Positions 11,281 to 56,691 of a stretch of 64,000 bases of DNA are shown in pieces (position 1 is the stretch's first letter; each line of letters begins with the position of its first letter). The DNA lies in IMG/VR virus record IMGVR_UViG_3300027741_000022, positions 1 to 64,000 of that record. One strand, written 5' to 3'. Source of the stretch: a virus. The position numbers were made by a program, and so were the translations under genes. The notes below the pieces were generated by a model. That model was not told the origin of the DNA, searched no databases, and saw only the letters and a list, made by a program, of their open reading frames with translations.

Positions 11281-13779
11281 TTAACTCTCTATAGAATAGT
11301 CTGGATTTTCTTCATCCATTTCAGTTTCATAGTCTCTTATTTTTAAACCATACTTCTCTATATCTTCATCACTTGGTTCTGGTAGCGCTTGTGAGTTAGA
11401 TTTCTCTGTGGGGTTTTCTTGTTGATTTTCTTCTGTTGGTTGTTCCTCTGGAGCAGCACCCTCAGTTGAAGGTTCTGTTGGTGCTTCAAGATTTGCGGAA
11501 GGACCACCAGGCTCTGTTCCCAATTCTGTCTCTGAAGAATCTTCTTTTGGAACTCCCACCCCAAGCAACTGTGGATTTTGTGAAAGAACCTGTATTTTCA
11601 ACTCTTCTAACTTTTGTATCTTTAGTCTACCGAGCATTTCGTCCGTTTGATCTTGTGAATACTTCAGCCAATTTATGTATATGTCATAATCTGACATCAA
11701 AACGGCACTCTTTAATTGTGTGGCAACTCCAAGCCTTGCATTAATCACATCTAATCTGCTTAATTCTCTCCAATCACTTGGAGGAGTCATTTTTATTTTA
11801 AGGTCTTTATATAATTCTTGCGGATAGCCTCTTAGAGTTAGATGTCTATCTGCTAATTCATATAATCCATCTTCAAAGCTAGCCTGAAGTCTTTCTATTT
11901 TTCTGGCGAATTTTACATCTTGTGAACTTAGACTCACCTTAGTGATGTTGATATCATCTCCGCTAAAATAATTTTTAGGAAAATTCAAACTCACGAAAAG
12001 TTTAGTTCTGAAATAAATTGCGTCATCTACTTCGCCCAACGATTGAGCACCTGGAAGTGTTTCTATTCTTGTATTGCTTCCTGGTCTGAGAGGAAGCCAA
12101 AAATCCTCATCAACAGCAGGAGGTTGCCATCTTTCATCTACTTTGTCTGCTCCTTCTCCGTATCCTCCTGCAACTTTTCGTTTTCTAAATTGATCCTTCA
12201 TTCGATCCATCAAGGAATCAACTTTGTGTGGAGGTAATTGACCAACATCTATGTAGAAAACTCTTCTTTCGCTTGCTCTTGCAAGTCTATAAACAACCAT
12301 ACTGTCTTCCATCAATCTTAATTGATGAGCAGGACTTCTGGCGGGTTCTATTAAGCTTACTCCATAAGGATAGAATGTTTTTCTATCTTCCCCAATTCTA
12401 AAGTGAATTATTTGATATGGGCTAAATCTTATAGCAGTACTTTTTTCTATATCTTTGGTACTTGTAAGATCTATCGGGTTTGTTAAAGCGCTATAGTCTG
12501 GACCTTCTTTGCTTTGTTGAAATTCAATTAGTTTTCCACGGGTTGTTTCTATTCTGTACATCGTCTCTGCAGGAAGATTTGATGTTTTGTATATACCTTC
12601 TTCTGGATTATCTGGATTGATTATTATTTCTAAAAAGTGATCTCCATTAACACAAAGATTTTTAAACCAACTCCATCCATTTTTATTTAAATTTATCATA
12701 TTTCTGTTAAAAAACAGAAATTCTATTTCATTTCTAATGTCATCACTACCAACAGAAATTGTACAAATATTTCCACTATCGTCTTTTTGACAATTGTGCA
12801 AAACAACACTATCTGTGCAAAAGCATTTATGTTTTTCAACACTAATATCATAAACATCTTCTGGTTCATTTTGTACTATTCCCACAACTCTTCTATAGTC
12901 AGTTTTACGACTTAGTTTTTTGAGCTCTTTTGCTGTAAACCCAGAACCTTCTACTTTGTTTTGCAATCCAACTGTTGTGATACCTAGAGTCTCAGCCACT
13001 TTTTTAACCATTATTCCCTTGCTTAGCATGTGAAGGGCTTTGTGTAAACGCTTTTCTTTTTCATCTGTTTTTCCAAATCTCCACCTATCTACAAAAAATC
13101 TTTCGTGCGTCCACCCAGTGTTGTAAGTGAAAATTCTTGGAAATTGATTTTTTTTGATTTTTGGTTCGTGTGTTACCGGAAGTCTATAAAAAGCCATCAA
13201 TTCATCGCCATCTTTTAGATTTCCTGTTTCTTCCCACTTTCCATTGCGTAATAACACTTTGTGATCTTTGGTGGCTGTGTAGCTACTTCCATCCTCAAGC
13301 ACTATCGTTAGAGTTTCTTCTTTTTTGACAAATCTTGGAGAATATGCCCATCCGAGTGTATGATCTTTTGCTTCTTCATCGAAACAATAAACCAAGAATT
13401 TCTCACTTGATCCTTCATCTACAAGCTCTTTTATTGTTTTGAATCCAAATGGAGTTGCAATTTTTGTACTTGCACTAACGCAAGCTTCGTCTGAAATTAC
13501 CGTCATAACGGTTTCAATTTCAGGTATATTCCTAAGTCTTTCATACTCTTTATATCTTCCACTTCTGTTGGTCAGAGTGGTTATGTCAATCATGTCGTTT
13601 GATTGACGATACGCCATTAATCCTTGAGAACCAGCAGCAACATCGTCACCGCCCATTGTTTGTAGGGCGTCGGGTTGAGACACACCGGCACCAGTCAGGT
13701 TTTTTGGATCCTGACTTCGTGAGTATGGATCTCTTTGAAATCCATATGTAAATAATTTGAAATAGTCGTACCAAGCCAT
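11281..13779 (-). CDS. T4 gp20-like portal vertex protein, intein-containing (about 602 aa after splicing)
   Basis: YRLARASERRVFYIDVG, EDFWLP, IETLPGAQSLGEVDDAIYF match the T4-type portal consensus; acidic C-terminal tail. Confidence 0.92.
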   Translation of the reverse strand: MAWYDYFKLFTYGFQRDPYSRSQDPKNLTGAGVSQPDALQTMGGDDVAAGSQGLMAYRQSNDMIDITTLTNRSGRYKEYERLRNIPEIETVMTVISDEACVSASTKIATPFGFKTIKELVDEGSSEKFLVYCFDEEAKDHTLGWAYSPRFVKKEETLTIVLEDGSSYTATKDHKVLLRNGKWEETGNLKDGDELMAFYRLPVTHEPKIKKNQFPRIFTYNTGWTHERFFVDRWRFGKTDEKEKRLHKALHMLSKGIMVKKVAETLGITTVGLQNKVEGSGFTAKELKKLSRKTDYRRVVGIVQNEPEDVYDISVEKHKCFCTDSVVLHNCQKDDSGNICTISVGSDDIRNEIEFLFFNRNMINLNKNGWSWFKNLCVNGDHFLEIIINPDNPEEGIYKTSNLPAETMYRIETTRGKLIEFQQSKEGPDYSALTNPIDLTSTKDIEKSTAIRFSPYQIIHFRIGEDRKTFYPYGVSLIEPARSPAHQLRLMEDSMVVYRLARASERRVFYIDVGQLPPHKVDSLMDRMKDQFRKRKVAGGYGEGADKVDERWQPPAVDEDFWLPLRPGSNTRIETLPGAQSLGEVDDAIYFRTKLFVSLNFPKNYFSGDDINITKVSLSSQDVKFARKIERLQASFEDGLYELADRHLTLRGYPQELYKDLKIKMTPPSDWRELSRLDVINARLGVATQLKSAVLMSDYDIYINWLKYSQDQTDEMLGRLKIQKLEELKIQVLSQNPQLLGVGVPKEDSSETELGTEPGGPSANLEAPTEPSTEGAAPEEQPTEENQQENPTEKSNSQALPEPSDEDIEKYGLKIRDYETEMDEENPDYSIES
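12793..13482 (-). mobile_element. 230-aa cis intein in the portal gene
   Basis: Begins CVSASTKIATP after DEA; block B TKDH; block F VYDISV; ends VLHN followed by C+1 (CQKD). No LAGLIDADG motif visible. Confidence 0.9.
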
Positions 13780-44634: not shown

Positions 44635-45018
44635 ATGTATTCTAAGAATTTGATTCTTGCCGTCGTGGCTGTTTTGTTTGTTTCAAATTATTCTGATGCT
44701 GCCCCAAGGAAGAGATATAATTATTCAACCCCAACCTATTCTTCTGTTCCATCCGAAAAGGTTTATTCATACACCAATTCTGTTCCAAATTCTCAGGGAA
44801 ATAGTGATCAAGAAAGATGTCAGGCAGAAGCCAATCATATGGCTGCAAATAACATCACTGGTCACGTTTGGAGCTGTATTGGTAGTTTTGAGGGTGTTGG
44901 CTATGGATCTTCTCCAAATTGCAACACCTGCACGCCCAGCGGTAGAATGAGCTTAACAGGTGATGCCAGTGCTCAGGGTAGAAATGGCATGTGGTATCGT
45001 GTTCGCTCTTGGCGATAA
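44635..45018 (+). CDS. Small secreted protein, reduced CAP/SCP-like
   Basis: Signal peptide; CQAEANHMAA...GHV...EGVG...C...WYRVRSW. Confidence 0.5.
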   Translation: MYSKNLILAVVAVLFVSNYSDAAPRKRYNYSTPTYSSVPSEKVYSYTNSVPNSQGNSDQERCQAEANHMAANNITGHVWSCIGSFEGVGYGSSPNCNTCTPSGRMSLTGDASAQGRNGMWYRVRSWR

Positions 45019-45022
45019 GTTA

Positions 45023-45066
45023 AACACCCGGAGAGGATTTTATTCCTCTCCGGGTGTTCTTTTGTT
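45023..45066 (+). terminator. Intrinsic terminator
   Basis: AACACCCGGAGAGGA / TCCTCTCCGGGTGTT stem followed by a T-rich tract. Confidence 0.85.
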
Positions 45067-45086
45067 TGATTACACAGGTGAGGAAA

Positions 45087-45233
45087 ATGGAATACATTAT
45101 TCTTGCAGTGTTGGTTGTTGTTTTTTTAAACGCTTGGTATAATCCCGATACAAGCTCCACTTCTTATAGACTTGGAAGAGGAGTTGGGAATAAAACCAGA
45201 AAACTTGGTGAATGGTTGATGAAAGATGATTGA
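45087..45233 (+). CDS. 48-aa membrane peptide MEYIILAVLVVVFLNAWY... (not in ORF track)
   Basis: GAGGA RBS; one hydrophobic helix. Confidence 0.5.
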   Translation: MEYIILAVLVVVFLNAWYNPDTSSTSYRLGRGVGNKTRKLGEWLMKDD

Positions 45234-45274
45234 AGTTTCACTCATTTTGTTTTGTTTAATTAAAGGAGTTGATT

Positions 45275-45598
45275 ATGTCTGAAGAAAAGAAAGTTTCAAA
45301 GACAAAGATGGTCAAGGAAATTCTTGAACAAAATCCATCTTTAAAGCCAATGGACATAGTTAAGATTATGTCCGAAAAAGGTATTGAAATTGATAATAAG
45401 TATGTGAGTATTATCAAGAGTAAAATTAAGACTGGTAACAAGAAGCCCATTTCTGTTGCTAAAAGAAGAATGAGTGGACACAAATCAAATGTGTCTGATT
45501 CTTTTGAAGATCTTATTGCTGTTAAGAACCTTTATGACACCATGGGTGCAGACAGAATTATTTCTGCTGTAAAGGCTATCGAAAAGATCACTAAGTAG
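45275..45598 (+). CDS. Small basic DNA-binding-like protein
   Basis: KTKMVKEILEQNPSLKPMDIVKIMSEKGIEI...VSIIKSK; AAGGAG RBS. Confidence 0.55.
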   Translation: MSEEKKVSKTKMVKEILEQNPSLKPMDIVKIMSEKGIEIDNKYVSIIKSKIKTGNKKPISVAKRRMSGHKSNVSDSFEDLIAVKNLYDTMGADRIISAVKAIEKITK

Positions 45599-45610
45599 TT
45601 TTTATTCTTA

Positions 45611-45648
45611 CACGGGGGGATAGTTCAATATCCCCCCGTGTATTTTTT
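45611..45648 (+). terminator. Intrinsic terminator
   Basis: CACGGGGGGATA / TATCCCCCCGTG + T run. Confidence 0.85.
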
Positions 45649-45665
45649 TAAAGAAATATATTATT

Positions 45666-46469
45666 ATGATTTTAAAACAAGTCAAACAGTTAGTAGATGA
45701 ATTAAAGGCAACCTCTAGTTCTCTTGAGAAAAAAGAGATTCTCAAAAAACACCTTGCCGACAATGAAAATTTAAAAAATATTGTTTATTATACATACAAT
45801 CCATTTTATCAATTTTATATAACAAGTGATGTTTGTGAAAAAAACATTCATCTCTCTGGCAAACAGTTTGAATGTATATTTGAATTACTAGATTCTTTGA
45901 GGTTAAGGAAATTAACTGGACACGACGCAGTTGGAGCAGTTAATGCATACATCAAAAAGAATGAAGAGTACAAAGAAATTATCTACACAATTATAGACAA
46001 AGATCTTAAAACAAGAACTGCAGAAAAGACAATCAATTCTGCAATTAGAAACTTAATACCTGAATTTGAAGTAGCTTTAGCCGATAAATATGATGAAAAG
46101 AATGTAAACTTTAAAGACACTTGGTATGCCAGCCAAAAAATGGACGGCTGCGTAGACTATAATACTGTTGTGGAATTCAAAGATGGTAAAAAACTTCCCA
46201 TAGGCTATGTGGTAGACAATAAAATTTTAGGAGAAGTTAAGTGTTATGATCACAAAAATAAAAAGATTGAGTATAAGCGTATTTTGAATTATATGAAAAA
46301 TACCGAAGATATTTCGGAAAATAAAAATGAAACTAATTGGTATGAAATAGAGTTGGAGAATGGGCATAAATTGAATATCACAGGAAATGATACAATCTAT
46401 CTCCCAGAGCTTAAATGCTATAGAAAAGTTGAAGAATTAAGAGGAGATGAAAAAGTTTTGTTTGATTAA
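45666..46469 (+). CDS. lig: ATP-dependent DNA ligase N-terminal half (ends at KMDG) fused to split-intein N-fragment
   Basis: LKATSSSLEKKEIL, YTYNPF, IIDKDLK, ALADKY, WYASQKMDG then CVDYNTVV...; stop TAA at 46467-46469. Confidence 0.9.
   Translation: MILKQVKQLVDELKATSSSLEKKEILKKHLADNENLKNIVYYTYNPFYQFYITSDVCEKNIHLSGKQFECIFELLDSLRLRKLTGHDAVGAVNAYIKKNEEYKEIIYTIIDKDLKTRTAEKTINSAIRNLIPEFEVALADKYDEKNVNFKDTWYASQKMDGCVDYNTVVEFKDGKKLPIGYVVDNKILGEVKCYDHKNKKIEYKRILNYMKNTEDISENKNETNWYEIELENGHKLNITGNDTIYLPELKCYRKVEELRGDEKVLFD
46149..46466 (+). mobile_element. Split intein N-fragment (106 aa)
   Basis: C1 at 46149; block A CVDYNTVVEF; block B YEIELENGHKLNITGND; KVEELRGDEKV. Confidence 0.85.
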
Positions 46470-46484
46470 AATGTCCGTCTAATT

Positions 46485-46520
46485 TTTTGCTTCCTGTTCA
46501 TATATAAACAGGAGGCAAAA
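46485..46520 (+). promoter_or_regulatory. Hairpin sequestering the AGGAGG RBS of the endonuclease gene, with TATATA in the loop
   Basis: TTTTGCTTCCTGTT-catatata-AACAGGAGGCAAAA. Confidence 0.65.
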
Positions 46521-47435
46521 ATGATTAAGTGTGAATTTTGTAAAAAAGCTAAGTTTTCAACAAATAATCAATTGCGTGGACACAAAGCCAAATGCCAGGA
46601 TTACATTAATTTTATTACAGAATATCGTAATAAAATTTTAACTAAAAAGTATTTAAAAAAACAACTGGTTGATTTAGGTCATTCTTGTTATCATTTGGAA
46701 TTGGAATTAAATGATCCAAGAATTAAAACATGTGATATAATAGCCAAAGCAAAAGAGTTAGGTTTGCCGACACAAACAATTAAAGAGGCTGCAAACAATC
46801 CGCTAACTAAACAAAAAAGAATACAATCGAATCTTAAAAAACATGGCTATAAAAATAATTTTCAATCAAAAAAAACAATCAAAACTTTAAAGAAAAAATA
46901 TGGCAAAAATATTACAAATGTTTTTCAGTTAGATTTTGTCAAAGAAAAAAGCAAAAAAACTATGGTGGAAAGATACGGGGTTGAAAACCCTGTGTTTCTT
47001 CCCAACTACAGAAGAAATGTCGGCAATATATCCTGGCAGCATAGATCAATAGAAAAAATCTTGGATAAATATGAAGTTGTTTACGATAGCGAAAATAAAC
47101 AGAGAATATCTTTTGGTAAGTATAACAAAAAATTAAAAAGAAACTACAATCCCAGACCAGATATTATTTTACATAAAGAGAAAATTATTTTTGAAATTTA
47201 TGGTGATTATTATCATGCTAATCCCAAAAAATATAAACCAAATGATTTGTTGGTAACATGGGCTGGAGAGCTTAAGGCTTTGGATATATGGGAAAAAGAC
47301 AAAAATAGAATGAATCATTTAAAAAGCTTTGGCTATAAAGTTTATGTTTTTTGGGGCTCTGACATTCGTTCCGATTCAAAAAAAGTAGAAAGAAGAATAT
47401 GCAGGCTATTAAAATTAAAAAAATCACCAGAATAG
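46521..47435 (+). mobile_element. Free-standing homing endonuclease (Vsr/DUF559-like PD-(D/E)xK) between the split-intein halves
   Basis: N-terminal CEFC..H..C finger, YG-V-EN-type repeats, RPDIIL...FEIYGDYYH...D..R...L...GYKV..FW. Confidence 0.8.
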
Positions 47436-47509
47436 AAAATAGAGATAAATACGAACTAGAAGTTGAAGATAATTCAAATTTTTTCACCAATGGTATTCTT
47501 AAACATAAT
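47399..47509 (+). mobile_element. Split intein C-fragment (37 aa)
   Basis: Block F YELEV, NFFTNGIL, terminal HN followed by Cys+1 at 47510. Confidence 0.88.
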
Positions 47510-48304
47510 TGTCGGTGTGCTTGTGTTGTTGATGAAAACGGTAAAGTTACAAGCTACAGCCGTCAAGGCAAGATATTTACAACCCTTGGTGTTGTTGAAA
47601 AAGAAATAGAAGCTCTAGGTTTAAAAAATGTTGTTTTTGATGGAGAGTTGTGTTCAATTAAAAACGGCATAGAAGATTTTCAATCAATAATGAAGTTGAT
47701 CAGGAAGAAGGACTACACAATACCTAATCCTGCTTATAAAATTTTTGATATGATTGATATCAATGATTTTTTTAATAAGAAGAGTAAGGATAAATTATCC
47801 ACAAGACTGCAGAAGCTAAAAGAAACAATACCAGAGAAAAACAAATACCTCCAGCTTTTAAAGCAAACCGTAGTTAAAGACAAGGATCACTTTGCCGAAC
47901 TATTGAAAGAAGCAAGTGATAAAAATTGGGAAGGGTTGATGCTTAGACGAGACTCTGCGTATGAAGGAAAAAGATCAAGAAGTCTTTTGAAAGTAAAAAC
48001 CTTCTTTGACGCAGAGTATAAAGTGGTTGATGTTGAGAATGGTCCCTTCCGCTTAGTAGTAGACGGCAAGGAAGTAGAGGAAACCATGCTTTCGTGCGTA
48101 ACAATCAAACACAAGGGATTTCCCGTTCGTGTTGGTTCAGGATGGACAATCGAAGACCGAAAGTTATATTATAAGAATCCAGAGAAAATTATTGGGAAAA
48201 TAATTTCTGTACAATATTTCTCTGAATCTTTTAATGAAAAAGGTGAAACTTCTCTAAGATTCCCCACTGTTAAATTTGTTCACGGAGAAAAAAGAGATAC
48301 ATAA
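47399..48304 (+). CDS. lig: Split-intein C-fragment fused to DNA ligase C-terminal half (adenylation + OB domains)
   Basis: MQAIKIKKITR...YELEVEDNSNFFTNGILKHN|CRC...SRQGK, FDGEL, IFDMI, EGLMLR, YEGKRS..LLKVK, VGSGW, SLRFP. Confidence 0.9.
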   Translation: MQAIKIKKITRIENRDKYELEVEDNSNFFTNGILKHNCRCACVVDENGKVTSYSRQGKIFTTLGVVEKEIEALGLKNVVFDGELCSIKNGIEDFQSIMKLIRKKDYTIPNPAYKIFDMIDINDFFNKKSKDKLSTRLQKLKETIPEKNKYLQLLKQTVVKDKDHFAELLKEASDKNWEGLMLRRDSAYEGKRSRSLLKVKTFFDAEYKVVDVENGPFRLVVDGKEVEETMLSCVTIKHKGFPVRVGSGWTIEDRKLYYKNPEKIIGKIISVQYFSESFNEKGETSLRFPTVKFVHGEKRDT

Positions 48305-48315
48305 AAGGAGTATTT

Positions 48316-49251
48316 GTGGGCAAACTAGGGCTTTGCTGTATATCTTTGATTCTTCAAGAGCGTGACCCGCCTTTAAAGTTTCAGAAAATGACCAAGACAC
48401 GCTTTCTTGCTTTGCCAAAAGATGAAGCAAGAAAGATTCTTGGAGAGCGAATTCTGAATAATATGATGGTGACCAATGAGGCTATCAAATATTGTTATGA
48501 AAATGATTATTGCTATCGAGTTAGTAGCGATCTTTTTCCGCTGATTACCTGTGATGAAGTTGGAACAGAACTCAAGGACTTAGTTAATTATAATGAAATT
48601 GAAATGGCTTTTGATCAAATTAAAGAAACTATATCCAATACCAATGTACGTGTTTCTGCTCACCCTAGTGAATTTAATGTGTTGGCTTCAACCAATATTC
48701 CCGCTGTCGAAAAAACAATTAAAGAACTTAACTTCTACAGTGAATTTTTCGACCGGATCGGCTGTGAAGCAAGTCATGTTAATCCCATGAATTTGCATAT
48801 TAACAACAAATTGGGATCTGATGATGAAGTGATTGAACGGTTTTTAAATAGTTTTGAAAAACTGGATGCTAACTGCAAGGCTCGATTGGTAATTGAGAAT
48901 GATGATAAACTAAATTGTTGGAGTGTTCGACAATTAAAGTATTTTCACGAGAAAACCAGTTTGCCAATTACTTTTGATTATCTTCATCATGCTTGTCATC
49001 CCGACAATATGAGTGAAGAAGAAGCTATTCATGTTTGTTTTGATACTTGGGATACAAAACCATTGTTTCATTACAGCGAGAGCAGAGAGGGAAATAATCC
49101 TCGCGCTCACGCTGATTATGCAAGCAAAAAGTTCGATAACCATGAGCTAGATTTTGACTGCGACCTGGAACTAAAGCAAAAAGACAAAGCTATACAAGCT
49201 TTTAATGAACAATTTATAAACACAAACGAGCTTAATAAAGGTGCCGCTTGA
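48316..49251 (+). CDS. uvsE: UV-damage endonuclease
   Basis: LGLCC, YRVSSDLFP, RVSAHP, LVIENDD, ITFDYLHH, PLFHYSE, RAHADY, ELKQKD. Confidence 0.9.
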   Translation: MGKLGLCCISLILQERDPPLKFQKMTKTRFLALPKDEARKILGERILNNMMVTNEAIKYCYENDYCYRVSSDLFPLITCDEVGTELKDLVNYNEIEMAFDQIKETISNTNVRVSAHPSEFNVLASTNIPAVEKTIKELNFYSEFFDRIGCEASHVNPMNLHINNKLGSDDEVIERFLNSFEKLDANCKARLVIENDDKLNCWSVRQLKYFHEKTSLPITFDYLHHACHPDNMSEEEAIHVCFDTWDTKPLFHYSESREGNNPRAHADYASKKFDNHELDFDCDLELKQKDKAIQAFNEQFINTNELNKGAA

Positions 49252-55605: not shown

Positions 55606-56691
55606 ATGTCTGTAATTGAATCTGCTAATCTTTACTACAAAGAAGGCGCCAGCGATAAAGTTTATCACGCCACTATTGAAGATATTGGCGGCAACTATGT
55701 TGTCAATTTTGCTTATGGTCGAAGGGGAAGTGCTTTAAAGACCGGAAGCAAGACAAATTCGCCCACTTCACTAAATGAAGCAAAATCTATTTTCAATAGT
55801 CTTATCAAGGAAAAGACGGGAAAGGGCTACCAATATATTGACAAGGCTTCTAATGAAGCAATCAATGTTGTGAGCGATGATTTGCCCGACACTCCCACAG
55901 AAATTCAATGTGTGTTGCTCAATCCTATTGAACAGGATGAAGCAGAGCAGCTTATCGATAATGATGATTGGGCTTTGCAGCATAAACTTGATGGAGTTAG
56001 GTTTATGCTTGGTAAAAAAGAAAAAGAATCTCTCAATGCGTTTAATCGCAAGGGCAAAAGAACCAACATCCCCACTGTTATCTGGAATTCCATAAACAGT
56101 TTACAACACAGCTTTTTTATTGATGGGGAATTAATCGGAGAAACTTTCCATGTATTTGATATTCTTGAATATCAAGGAGAGTGTTTGCGTAAAAAGAGCT
56201 TTATTGAAAGAATGAAGCATCTTAAGACTTTGTTTAAGCATATTTCTTCTGAGCATATTGTCTTAACTCCTTTTTATACTGATAAAAAGGAAAAGCGTAA
56301 AATCTACGAAAATCTATTGGCAGGCAATCAAGAGGGTGTTGTATTCAAACATATTGATGCACACTATTATGTTGGTCGCCCTGCAAGTGGTGGTAAGTAT
56401 CTTAAGTATAAATTCTACAGCACATGTAGCTGCGTTGTAACAGCCATTAACAAAAAGCGTAGTGCCGCATTGGGTCTTTACAAGGGCAAGAAGCTTGTAA
56501 AGGCTGGCAACGTCACCATCTCTGTAAATTTCGATATTCCAGAAGTTGGTGATGTGGTTGAAGTAAAGTATCTTTATGCAAGAAAGCAATCTGGTGCTTT
56601 ATATCAGCCCATCTATCTTGGAAAAAGAACAGACGTAAATACCGAAGAGTGTCAGCAAAATCAACTTAAGTTTAAGGCAGAAGAAGAGTGA
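55606..56691 (+). CDS. WGR-domain + ATP-dependent DNA ligase (intact)
   Basis: SDKVYH..FAYGRRG (WGR-like); HKLDGVR, IDGELI, VFDIL, EGVVFK, LKYKF; OB domain. Confidence 0.85.
   Translation: MSVIESANLYYKEGASDKVYHATIEDIGGNYVVNFAYGRRGSALKTGSKTNSPTSLNEAKSIFNSLIKEKTGKGYQYIDKASNEAINVVSDDLPDTPTEIQCVLLNPIEQDEAEQLIDNDDWALQHKLDGVRFMLGKKEKESLNAFNRKGKRTNIPTVIWNSINSLQHSFFIDGELIGETFHVFDILEYQGECLRKKSFIERMKHLKTLFKHISSEHIVLTPFYTDKKEKRKIYENLLAGNQEGVVFKHIDAHYYVGRPASGGKYLKYKFYSTCSCVVTAINKKRSAALGLYKGKKLVKAGNVTISVNFDIPEVGDVVEVKYLYARKQSGALYQPIYLGKRTDVNTEECQQNQLKFKAEEE

Follow-up and report, generated by a model that had tools for sequence, protein, structure and literature searches.

Fractured genes were described in 2009 by Dassa, London, Stoddard, Schueler-Furman and Pietrokovski as sets of three co-oriented open reading frames (ORFs), which encode the N-terminal part of a host protein fused to an N-terminal intein fragment (IntN), a free-standing Vsr-like endonuclease, and a C-terminal intein fragment (IntC) fused to the rest of the host protein; they include one DNA ligase locus from Lake Gatun (PMC2677866). 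Reported for them are a spacer of 27-51 nucleotides (nt), an overlap of 6-69 bp between the endonuclease gene and the IntC sequence, a hairpin at the ribosome-binding site (RBS) and a T4-late-promoter-like element (PMC2677866), and the EDxHD family of nucleases was first predicted from such genes (PMC2677866; PMC3384342). Here we describe a locus of this type in the first 64 kb (64,000 nt, hereafter the window) of the IMG/VR virus record IMGVR_UViG_3300027741_000022, a single 187,644-bp contig with 35% G+C and a phage portal gene. The locus is a fractured ATP-dependent DNA ligase gene of a phage of approximately 188 kb from freshwater, in which motif I (K-M-D-G / x-R) is interrupted after Gly161 by a 1361-nt mobile cassette that most probably represents a class-1-type intein split by a Vsr-like homing endonuclease gene; trans-splicing and homing are what we infer from its parts.

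The similarity to the fractured genes of 2009 extends to details. The three ORFs have the same order and orientation, the spacer (51 nt) and the overlap (37 nt) both lie inside the published ranges, a hairpin covers the 5' untranslated region and RBS of the endonuclease gene, the origin is again a freshwater phage, and variants free of the endonuclease exist. The original prediction, made from the window sequence without database searches, had placed the locus among known fractured genes with Vsr-like endonucleases, and in its spacer, hairpin and overlap the locus agrees with what was published (PMC2677866); because one fractured DNA ligase was already reported in 2009 (PMC2677866), the kind of locus is known. 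There are also differences. The Lake Gatun ligase locus was outside the five loci assembled in 2009 with both host termini (PMC2677866), whereas the ligase gene of the window is complete and lies in a long contig (the Lake Gatun locus was compared by its published description). The gene following the ligase is a 5'-3' exonuclease at Lake Gatun (PMC2677866) and UvdE in the window, and the inteins of 2009 were stated to be complete in their five catalytic residues, the block-B His among them (PMC2677866), whereas the window intein has Asp at this position. New relative to 2009 are the completeness of the locus, a natural empty allele, the block-B Asp, and how large and site-specific the intein family is.

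The interrupted ligase gene and its empty allele

The features of the locus, with positions in the window, are as follows.

45666..46469, plus strand: ORF of the N-terminal ligase half (N-half), 267 amino acids (aa); residues 1-161 are the N-extein, followed by IntN
45666..46148, plus strand: ligase N-extein, 161 aa; DNA-binding N-terminal domain and start of the adenylation domain, ending with motif I at K158-M-D-G161
46149..46466, plus strand: IntN, 106 aa, first residue Cys (Cys162 of the N-half); followed by a TAA stop at 46467, through 46469
46470..46520, plus strand: non-coding spacer of 51 nt between the IntN stop and the endonuclease start
46521..47435, plus strand: free-standing endonuclease gene, 304 aa, Vsr-like by profile and fold
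47399..48304, plus strand: ORF of the C-terminal ligase half (C-half), 301 aa, in a different frame
47399..47509, plus strand: IntC, 37 aa; block F KYELEVEDNSNFF and block G GILKHN, ending with H36-N37
47510..48304, plus strand: ligase C-extein, 264 aa, starting with the +1 Cys (CRCACVV); remainder of the adenylation domain and OB domain

When re-read from the sequence, the ORF coordinates and junction residues given in the original prediction were all exact. The N-extein ends with the letters WYASQKMDG, and the ATG of the C-half, which is the earliest possible start after an in-frame TGA at 47360, lies within the 3' end of the endonuclease gene, with which it overlaps by 37 nt in another frame. 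The two halves are complementary parts of one ligase, the N-half covering positions 87-250 of the PHROG_114 ligase profile (E-value 9e-35) and the C-half positions 250-502. Moreover, the C-extein matches Pfam DNA_ligase_A_M (1e-17) and DNA_ligase_OB_2 as well as the PDB ligase 6rau (4e-16), and it carries the motifs FDGEL, EGLMLR and LLKVK. Conceptual splicing gives a 425-aa ligase with KMDGCR as motif I, which fits KxDGxR. Among unsplit relatives, in which motif I reads K-[LMI]-D-G-[VA]-R, the 425-430 aa ligases P0005, P0009 and P0011 are 88-93% identical to the N-extein (93% for P0005, locus L001), and an unsplit relative aligns over its full length with the solved ligase 6rau such that KLDGVR falls on KLDGVR. 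Joined together, the exteins equal the unsplit ligase gene of L001 in length (1275 nt), with 90% nucleotide identity and zero indels.

An allele lacking the cassette is present in a contig from the independent freshwater metagenome X5, where position 46147 is joined to position 47514 with TGTAA between them, i.e. with a net absence of exactly 1361 nt, which is the length of the cassette 46149..47509. The empty allele reads SQKMDG/VRCACVVDENG (the slash marks the insertion point) and its flanks are 99% and 96% identical to the window; the cassette aside, the occupied and empty alleles differ in the +1 and +2 codons, which are TGT CGG (Cys-Arg) and GTA AGG (Val-Arg), respectively. Closely related phages thus carry either the occupied or the empty allele, and with a near-identical natural empty allele at hand the homing site can be read directly. 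That precise excision would restore the ligase is therefore borne out both by co-linearity with unsplit relatives and by an allele found in nature. A co-conversion tract, considered because substitutions relative to L001 are concentrated at the junction, was dropped, as the upstream flank of X5 is that of the window and only the +1 and +2 codons differ.

The occupied arrangement was likewise found outside the window record. Logan contigs from X3 and X4 (freshwater metagenomes) and X6 (listed as "metagenome") run through the TAA stop, the spacer and the overlap of endonuclease and IntC with zero indels; this reproduces the stop at 46467 and the frame offsets, and speaks against an assembly frameshift. 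The runs of X3, X4 and X6 are listed under other samples and studies than the window, and wherever a sequencing run states its habitat, it is a freshwater metagenome. An N-half of equal length and 95% identity (P0001) was retrieved from other data sets. Among 50,697 phage records no match to the locus was found by blastn, and tblastn of the C-half against phage records gave only ligases of <40% identity, none of which covered IntC.

The split intein, the endonuclease and their putative expression signals

No intein was found when the window IntN alone was compared with the PDB using phmmer, and for this reason a family profile was needed; it was built from members with short exteins. This profile matched Npu DnaE (2e-11), NrdJ-1 (4e-11) and DnaB mini-inteins (1e-6), making NrdJ-1 and Npu/Ssp DnaE (PDB 8ubs, 4lx3, 4kl5, 1zd7; 2e-11 to 4e-11) the best solved relatives of the IntN family, while IntC matched positions 121-155 of Pfam Intein_splicing (6e-6). 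The earlier assignment to inteins, for which an alignment with known split inteins had been proposed as a check, is thus supported from both sides. The window pair shares with NrdJ-1 and DnaE the split point (IntN approximately 100-105 aa, IntC approximately 35 aa), Cys1 and the block-G HN, and with DnaE also the +1 Cys; it differs from them in block B (TGND versus TKDH/TPDH), in the host protein and in the insertion site. Contiguous mini-inteins with a short linker occupy the same ligase site (KLDG/C...VHN/CR) in the WGR-type ligases P0150 (523 aa) and P0154 (513 aa), and IntN and IntC can therefore be regarded as the halves of one domain. These two proteins came from an exhaustive search of a representative library; a word-based search for a longer, intein-containing ligase had found none.

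With respect to catalytic residues, Cys1, the block-B Thr, the C-terminal His-Asn and the +1 Cys are all present. IntC had been called basic, and this holds for its first 18 residues (+4); the rest carries a charge of -3, so that the net charge is only +1, and the net charge of IntN is -3.

The protein encoded between the halves has an N-terminal zinc finger of the form CxxC...H...C, DUF7487 helical repeats and a C-terminal Vsr-like (EDxHD-type) nuclease domain. Pfam matches were to DUF7487, to DUF559 (at threshold) and, weakly, to Vsr. The family profile matches E. coli Vsr (1vsr/1cw0) over 87 residues (E-value approximately 1e-3), and in an alignment of 36 homologues, to which the zinc finger is common, D214, E225 and H232 never vary and D260 is retained in at least 90%, giving the pattern PD...E..G..H.NP...D. 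Specifically, D214, H232 and D260 align with the Asp of the Vsr RPD motif, a His of a WH motif and the Asp of the ERD motif. An AlphaFold2 model (mean predicted local distance difference test, pLDDT, 90.9) gave Vsr 1cw0, I-Bth0305I 3r3p and Vsr 1vsr as best Foldseek matches, all with probability 1.0, and the prediction of a separate Vsr-like endonuclease between the halves is supported by profile as well as by fold. With I-Bth0305I (3r3p; PMC3384342) the window endonuclease shares the fold of the nuclease domain (template-modelling score 0.67 on target, 24% identity), the Vsr-type Asp, His and Asp, and an extra conserved acidic residue. It differs in being free-standing inside a split intein and in having its own zinc finger and DUF7487 repeats, whereas I-Bth0305I sits in a group I intron. 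Both the endonuclease and IntN are present only once in the 187,644-bp genome.

In the spacer, a hairpin with a 14-bp core stem (46485-46498 / 46507-46520) pairs the AGGAGG Shine-Dalgarno sequence (46510-46515) in front of the endonuclease ATG. Its minimum free energy is -20.1 kcal/mol (z -4.6), and none of 200 shuffled sequences was as stable. Hairpins of other sequence that sequester the Shine-Dalgarno are found in L002, L003, L004, L081 and L008, and in L082 a hairpin covers the endonuclease start codon instead; these loci, like the others compared below, are IMG/VR and metagenome contigs. The loops of the related loci carry TATAAATA-like strings (exactly TATAAATA in L082 and CATAAATA in L008), and the window loop contains TATATAAA, which differs from the exact T4 late consensus. 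A comparable arrangement, a stem burying the endonuclease Shine-Dalgarno with a TATAAATA-like element in or near the loop, is that of T4 I-TevI and of the Aeh1 nrdA endonuclease, as these are discussed in PMC2677866. At the other end of the endonuclease gene, its overlap with IntC is 37, 37, 28, 28 and 8 nt in L002, L003, L004, L006 and L008, respectively, and the low synonymous divergence of IntC fits dual coding of the overlap.

The layout N-half, endonuclease, C-half is seen again in no fewer than seven further contigs of viral or metagenomic origin (L002, L003, L004, L006, L008, L082 and L084). In L005 only a remnant of the endonuclease is left and in L085 the intein is split with the endonuclease absent; IntC is conserved in L002-L008, L082, L084 and L085. 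As a separate observation, L009 has a Vsr-like endonuclease on the minus strand (L009:5821-6669) after a ligase N-half, with no C-half in the remaining 2.2 kb of the contig, and may be a rearranged or uncoupled fractured locus.

Among L002-L004, the ratio of nonsynonymous to synonymous substitutions (dN/dS) is 0.12-0.27 for the N-extein, IntN, the endonuclease and the C-extein and 0.00-0.27 for IntC, values that are approximate because dS is near saturation; on these values all parts of the locus are under purifying selection. Identity between the window and the same three loci is 48-58% for the exteins, 63-67% for IntN, 63-68% for the endonuclease and 70-76% for IntC, and among the three loci themselves the order of cassette and extein identity is reversed. 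Such incongruence between exteins and cassette is as expected for a cassette that moves horizontally. The higher conservation of the cassette relative to the window exteins and the exact presence/absence polymorphism seen with X5 lend indirect support to homing by cleavage of the empty allele.

If the parts act as their relatives do, two polypeptides would be made, N-extein-IntN (267 aa) and IntC-C-extein (301 aa), whose intein fragments would associate into one HINT domain and trans-splice. A thioester would form at Cys1 and be attacked by the +1 Cys, and cyclisation of Asn37 would then release the 425-aa ligase with motif I joined as KMDGCR. The endonuclease would be held back by the hairpin that buries its RBS, and is probably translated only from a late transcript starting inside the hairpin. 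It would cut intein-less ligase alleles of co-infecting relatives, and repair would copy the whole cassette into them. Splicing activity, endonuclease specificity and late expression are thus properties that we infer.

Block B, neighbouring genes and alternative readings

Several observations weigh against a splicing-competent, mobile locus. The block-B motif is T-G-N-D (46380-46391) and aligns with TKDH/TPDH of DnaE and NrdJ-1, i.e. the His that normally promotes the N-S acyl shift is replaced by Asp and the T-x-x-H pattern is absent. In block F, Glu takes the place of an Asp of the relatives, and Ser that of a His present in some of them. The near-saturation of dS mentioned above belongs here too, the Logan runs possibly derive in part from one sampling campaign, and a second, intact ligase gene in the same genome could relax selection on the split one. 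The position of this gene and of two other features near the locus is given here.

45609..45642, plus strand: strong intrinsic-terminator-like hairpin with a 14-bp stem and a T run, which ends the upstream gene; 24 nt before the N-half ATG
48316-49251, plus strand: UvdE (UV-damage endonuclease), Pfam 1e-41; 11 nt after the ligase C-half
55606..56691, plus strand: second, uninterrupted ATP-dependent ligase with an N-terminal WGR domain (Pfam WGR 6e-8, DNA_ligase_A_M 6e-16)

Motif I of the second ligase is unoccupied here, and the same ligase type hosts the IntN family in other phages. The original prediction that an active ligase can arise only by trans-splicing consequently stands for the split gene, and does not extend to the genome as a whole, which encodes this intact enzyme. 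The close spacing of the fractured ligase and UvdE suggests a small repair module. Between the terminator-like hairpin and the N-half ATG neither a Shine-Dalgarno sequence nor a sigma-70-like promoter was found; upstream of the N-half in L002-L004 there are clear TTGACA/TATACT-type promoters and a GGAG site. Elsewhere in the window, the 831-aa portal ORF (11281-13779, minus strand) matches the portal profile from residue 345, and its residues 93-333 match part of a terminase-large-subunit PHROG family.

The loss of the block-B His is shared by a clade consisting of the window locus, L002-L005 and approximately 20 metagenomic N-halves, all with TGND, while more distant ligase relatives have TGNH or TSNH. 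IntC of the TGND clade has KYELEV and GILKHN where the TGNH relatives have YD[LI] and [VI]L[VI]HN, and the clade is marked by Val2, by an Ile preceding block B, by the block-F Glu and by the block-G Lys. We considered whether the block-F Asp to Glu change and the block-G Lys compensate for the change of the block-B His to Asp, and rejected this, since a TGNN lineage keeps YDL and ILIHN; the covariation is therefore the signature of one clade rather than demonstrated compensation. A natural precedent is given by inteins of the Tko CDC21-1 type, which as cited in PMC6333167 naturally lack the block-B His and are class-1-like, presumably with compensating residues. According to the same source they are contiguous and archaeal and have a bulky Leu at -1, whereas the window intein is split, with Gly at -1 and His replaced by Asp. 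As a few inteins known to splice also lack this His, TGND weakens the assignment to inteins and does not exclude it.

The alternative that survives best, although we consider it unlikely, is that the locus is a splicing-dead relic, in which loss of the block-B His has crippled the intein, the halves stay unjoined, and ligation is left to the WGR-type second ligase or to the host. TGND in place of TxxH, the intact gene at 55606..56691 and an empty allele that is 96-99% identical in nature, such that the insertion may be recent, would all fit this. A relic is, however, difficult to reconcile with the retention of TGND across a whole clade whose exteins have diverged to the low identities given above and are still intact, or with the dN/dS values of exteins and intein fragments. 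Every other catalytic residue is present, 33 of 140 related IntN clusters likewise lack the His and all of them have Cys1, and splicing is known for a small group of natural inteins without it (PMC6333167). That exteins have stayed intact for so long behind TGND inteins gives good but indirect support for splicing competence of the TGND intein.

Less probable by a clear margin is a purely structural role, where the intein fragments would hold the ligase halves together non-covalently through the HINT fold and no peptide bond would be formed. Split-intein fragments associate tightly, and a weakened block B could favour association without chemistry. The result would nevertheless be a HINT domain of approximately 143 residues wedged in motif I beside the adenylated lysine, and Asn37, the penultimate His and the +1 Cys, which are needed for splicing only, are conserved in every paired locus; moreover, the +1 residue is Cys in occupied alleles and Val in empty ones.

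Finally, that the split is an assembly frameshift or an RNA-level group I or group II intron carrying the endonuclease gene is highly improbable, for although endonuclease-bearing group I introns are common in phage genes, the interruption encodes HINT blocks that continue the reading frames of the two exteins, independent contigs and the P0001 N-half repeat the stop, frames or length, and an Rfam scan of 45000..49000 at E ≤ 1 revealed no intron, only sub-threshold chance matches (ctRNA, mir-3914 and RAGATH-22, the last with 25.9 bits where the gathering score is 120).

An IntN family at motif I of ligases

The intein of the window belongs to a much larger set. In a representative library of 1.8 billion proteins, 428 clusters of IntN relatives were detected at E ≤ 1e-3, the IntN-like segment lying at the C-terminus of nearly all these proteins, and insertion site and block B were mapped for 140 relatives from the best 150 of these clusters (proteins P0121-P0269; loci L161-L178). 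Directly after K-x-[D/H/N/E]-G we found 129 of the 140, and 133 end no more than 12 residues past the end of IntN and are thus split. The hosts are DNA ligases, WGR-ligases and proteins with KxHG, which we take to be probably Rnl2-like RNA ligases by the motif EKIHGTN of T4 Rnl2. At +1, the ATP-dependent DNA ligases of the window type have Cys, and the KxHG hosts have Thr or Ser (KxHG/TS in TGNN loci and /S in two TGNH loci). A gap of approximately 0.8-1.1 kb separates the halves, which fits an intervening endonuclease gene; in L170 and L178 it is only approximately 90-100 nt.

The last residue of block B is His in 107 of the mapped relatives, Asn in 20, Asp in 12 and Gln in one. The 32 relatives with Asp or Asn have Val2 in 91% of cases (versus 26%) and Ile before block B in 97% (versus 16%), which suggests that the forms without His constitute one old sub-lineage spread over DNA- and RNA-ligase hosts. 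All stages of the gene-breaking model of 2009 are represented within this one family, i.e. the contiguous mini-intein (P0150, P0154), the split form with an endonuclease, the endonuclease remnant (L005) and the endonuclease-free form (L085). Within the set of papers searched, none described an intein family specific for the ligase motif beyond the single 2009 ligase locus.

We therefore put forward, with the chances for and against about evenly balanced, that the window intein is part of a large, undescribed lineage of natural split inteins that would home to K-x-[D/H/N/E]-G throughout the ligase superfamily (ATP-dependent DNA ligases, WGR-ligases and, judging from the KxHG/T junction, probably Rnl2-like RNA ligases), of which about a quarter (ITGN[D/N], Val2) would splice without the block-B His.

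The locus provides a complete example of a fractured DNA ligase within a long phage contig. Its intein pair is short (106 + 37 aa) and matched no tool intein in pairwise searches, and the suggestion that it might serve as an orthogonal split-intein tool is, judged from its sequence, plausible; it could extend the existing set, with the caveat that its block-B His is missing and that Gly at -1 and Cys at +1 may be required. The natural variants of the IntN family without this His represent material for mechanistic work. If the wider lineage is as proposed, nature would have supplied a whole series of split inteins that have diverged from one another, may be orthogonal, and activate the N-terminal scissile bond in a non-canonical manner.

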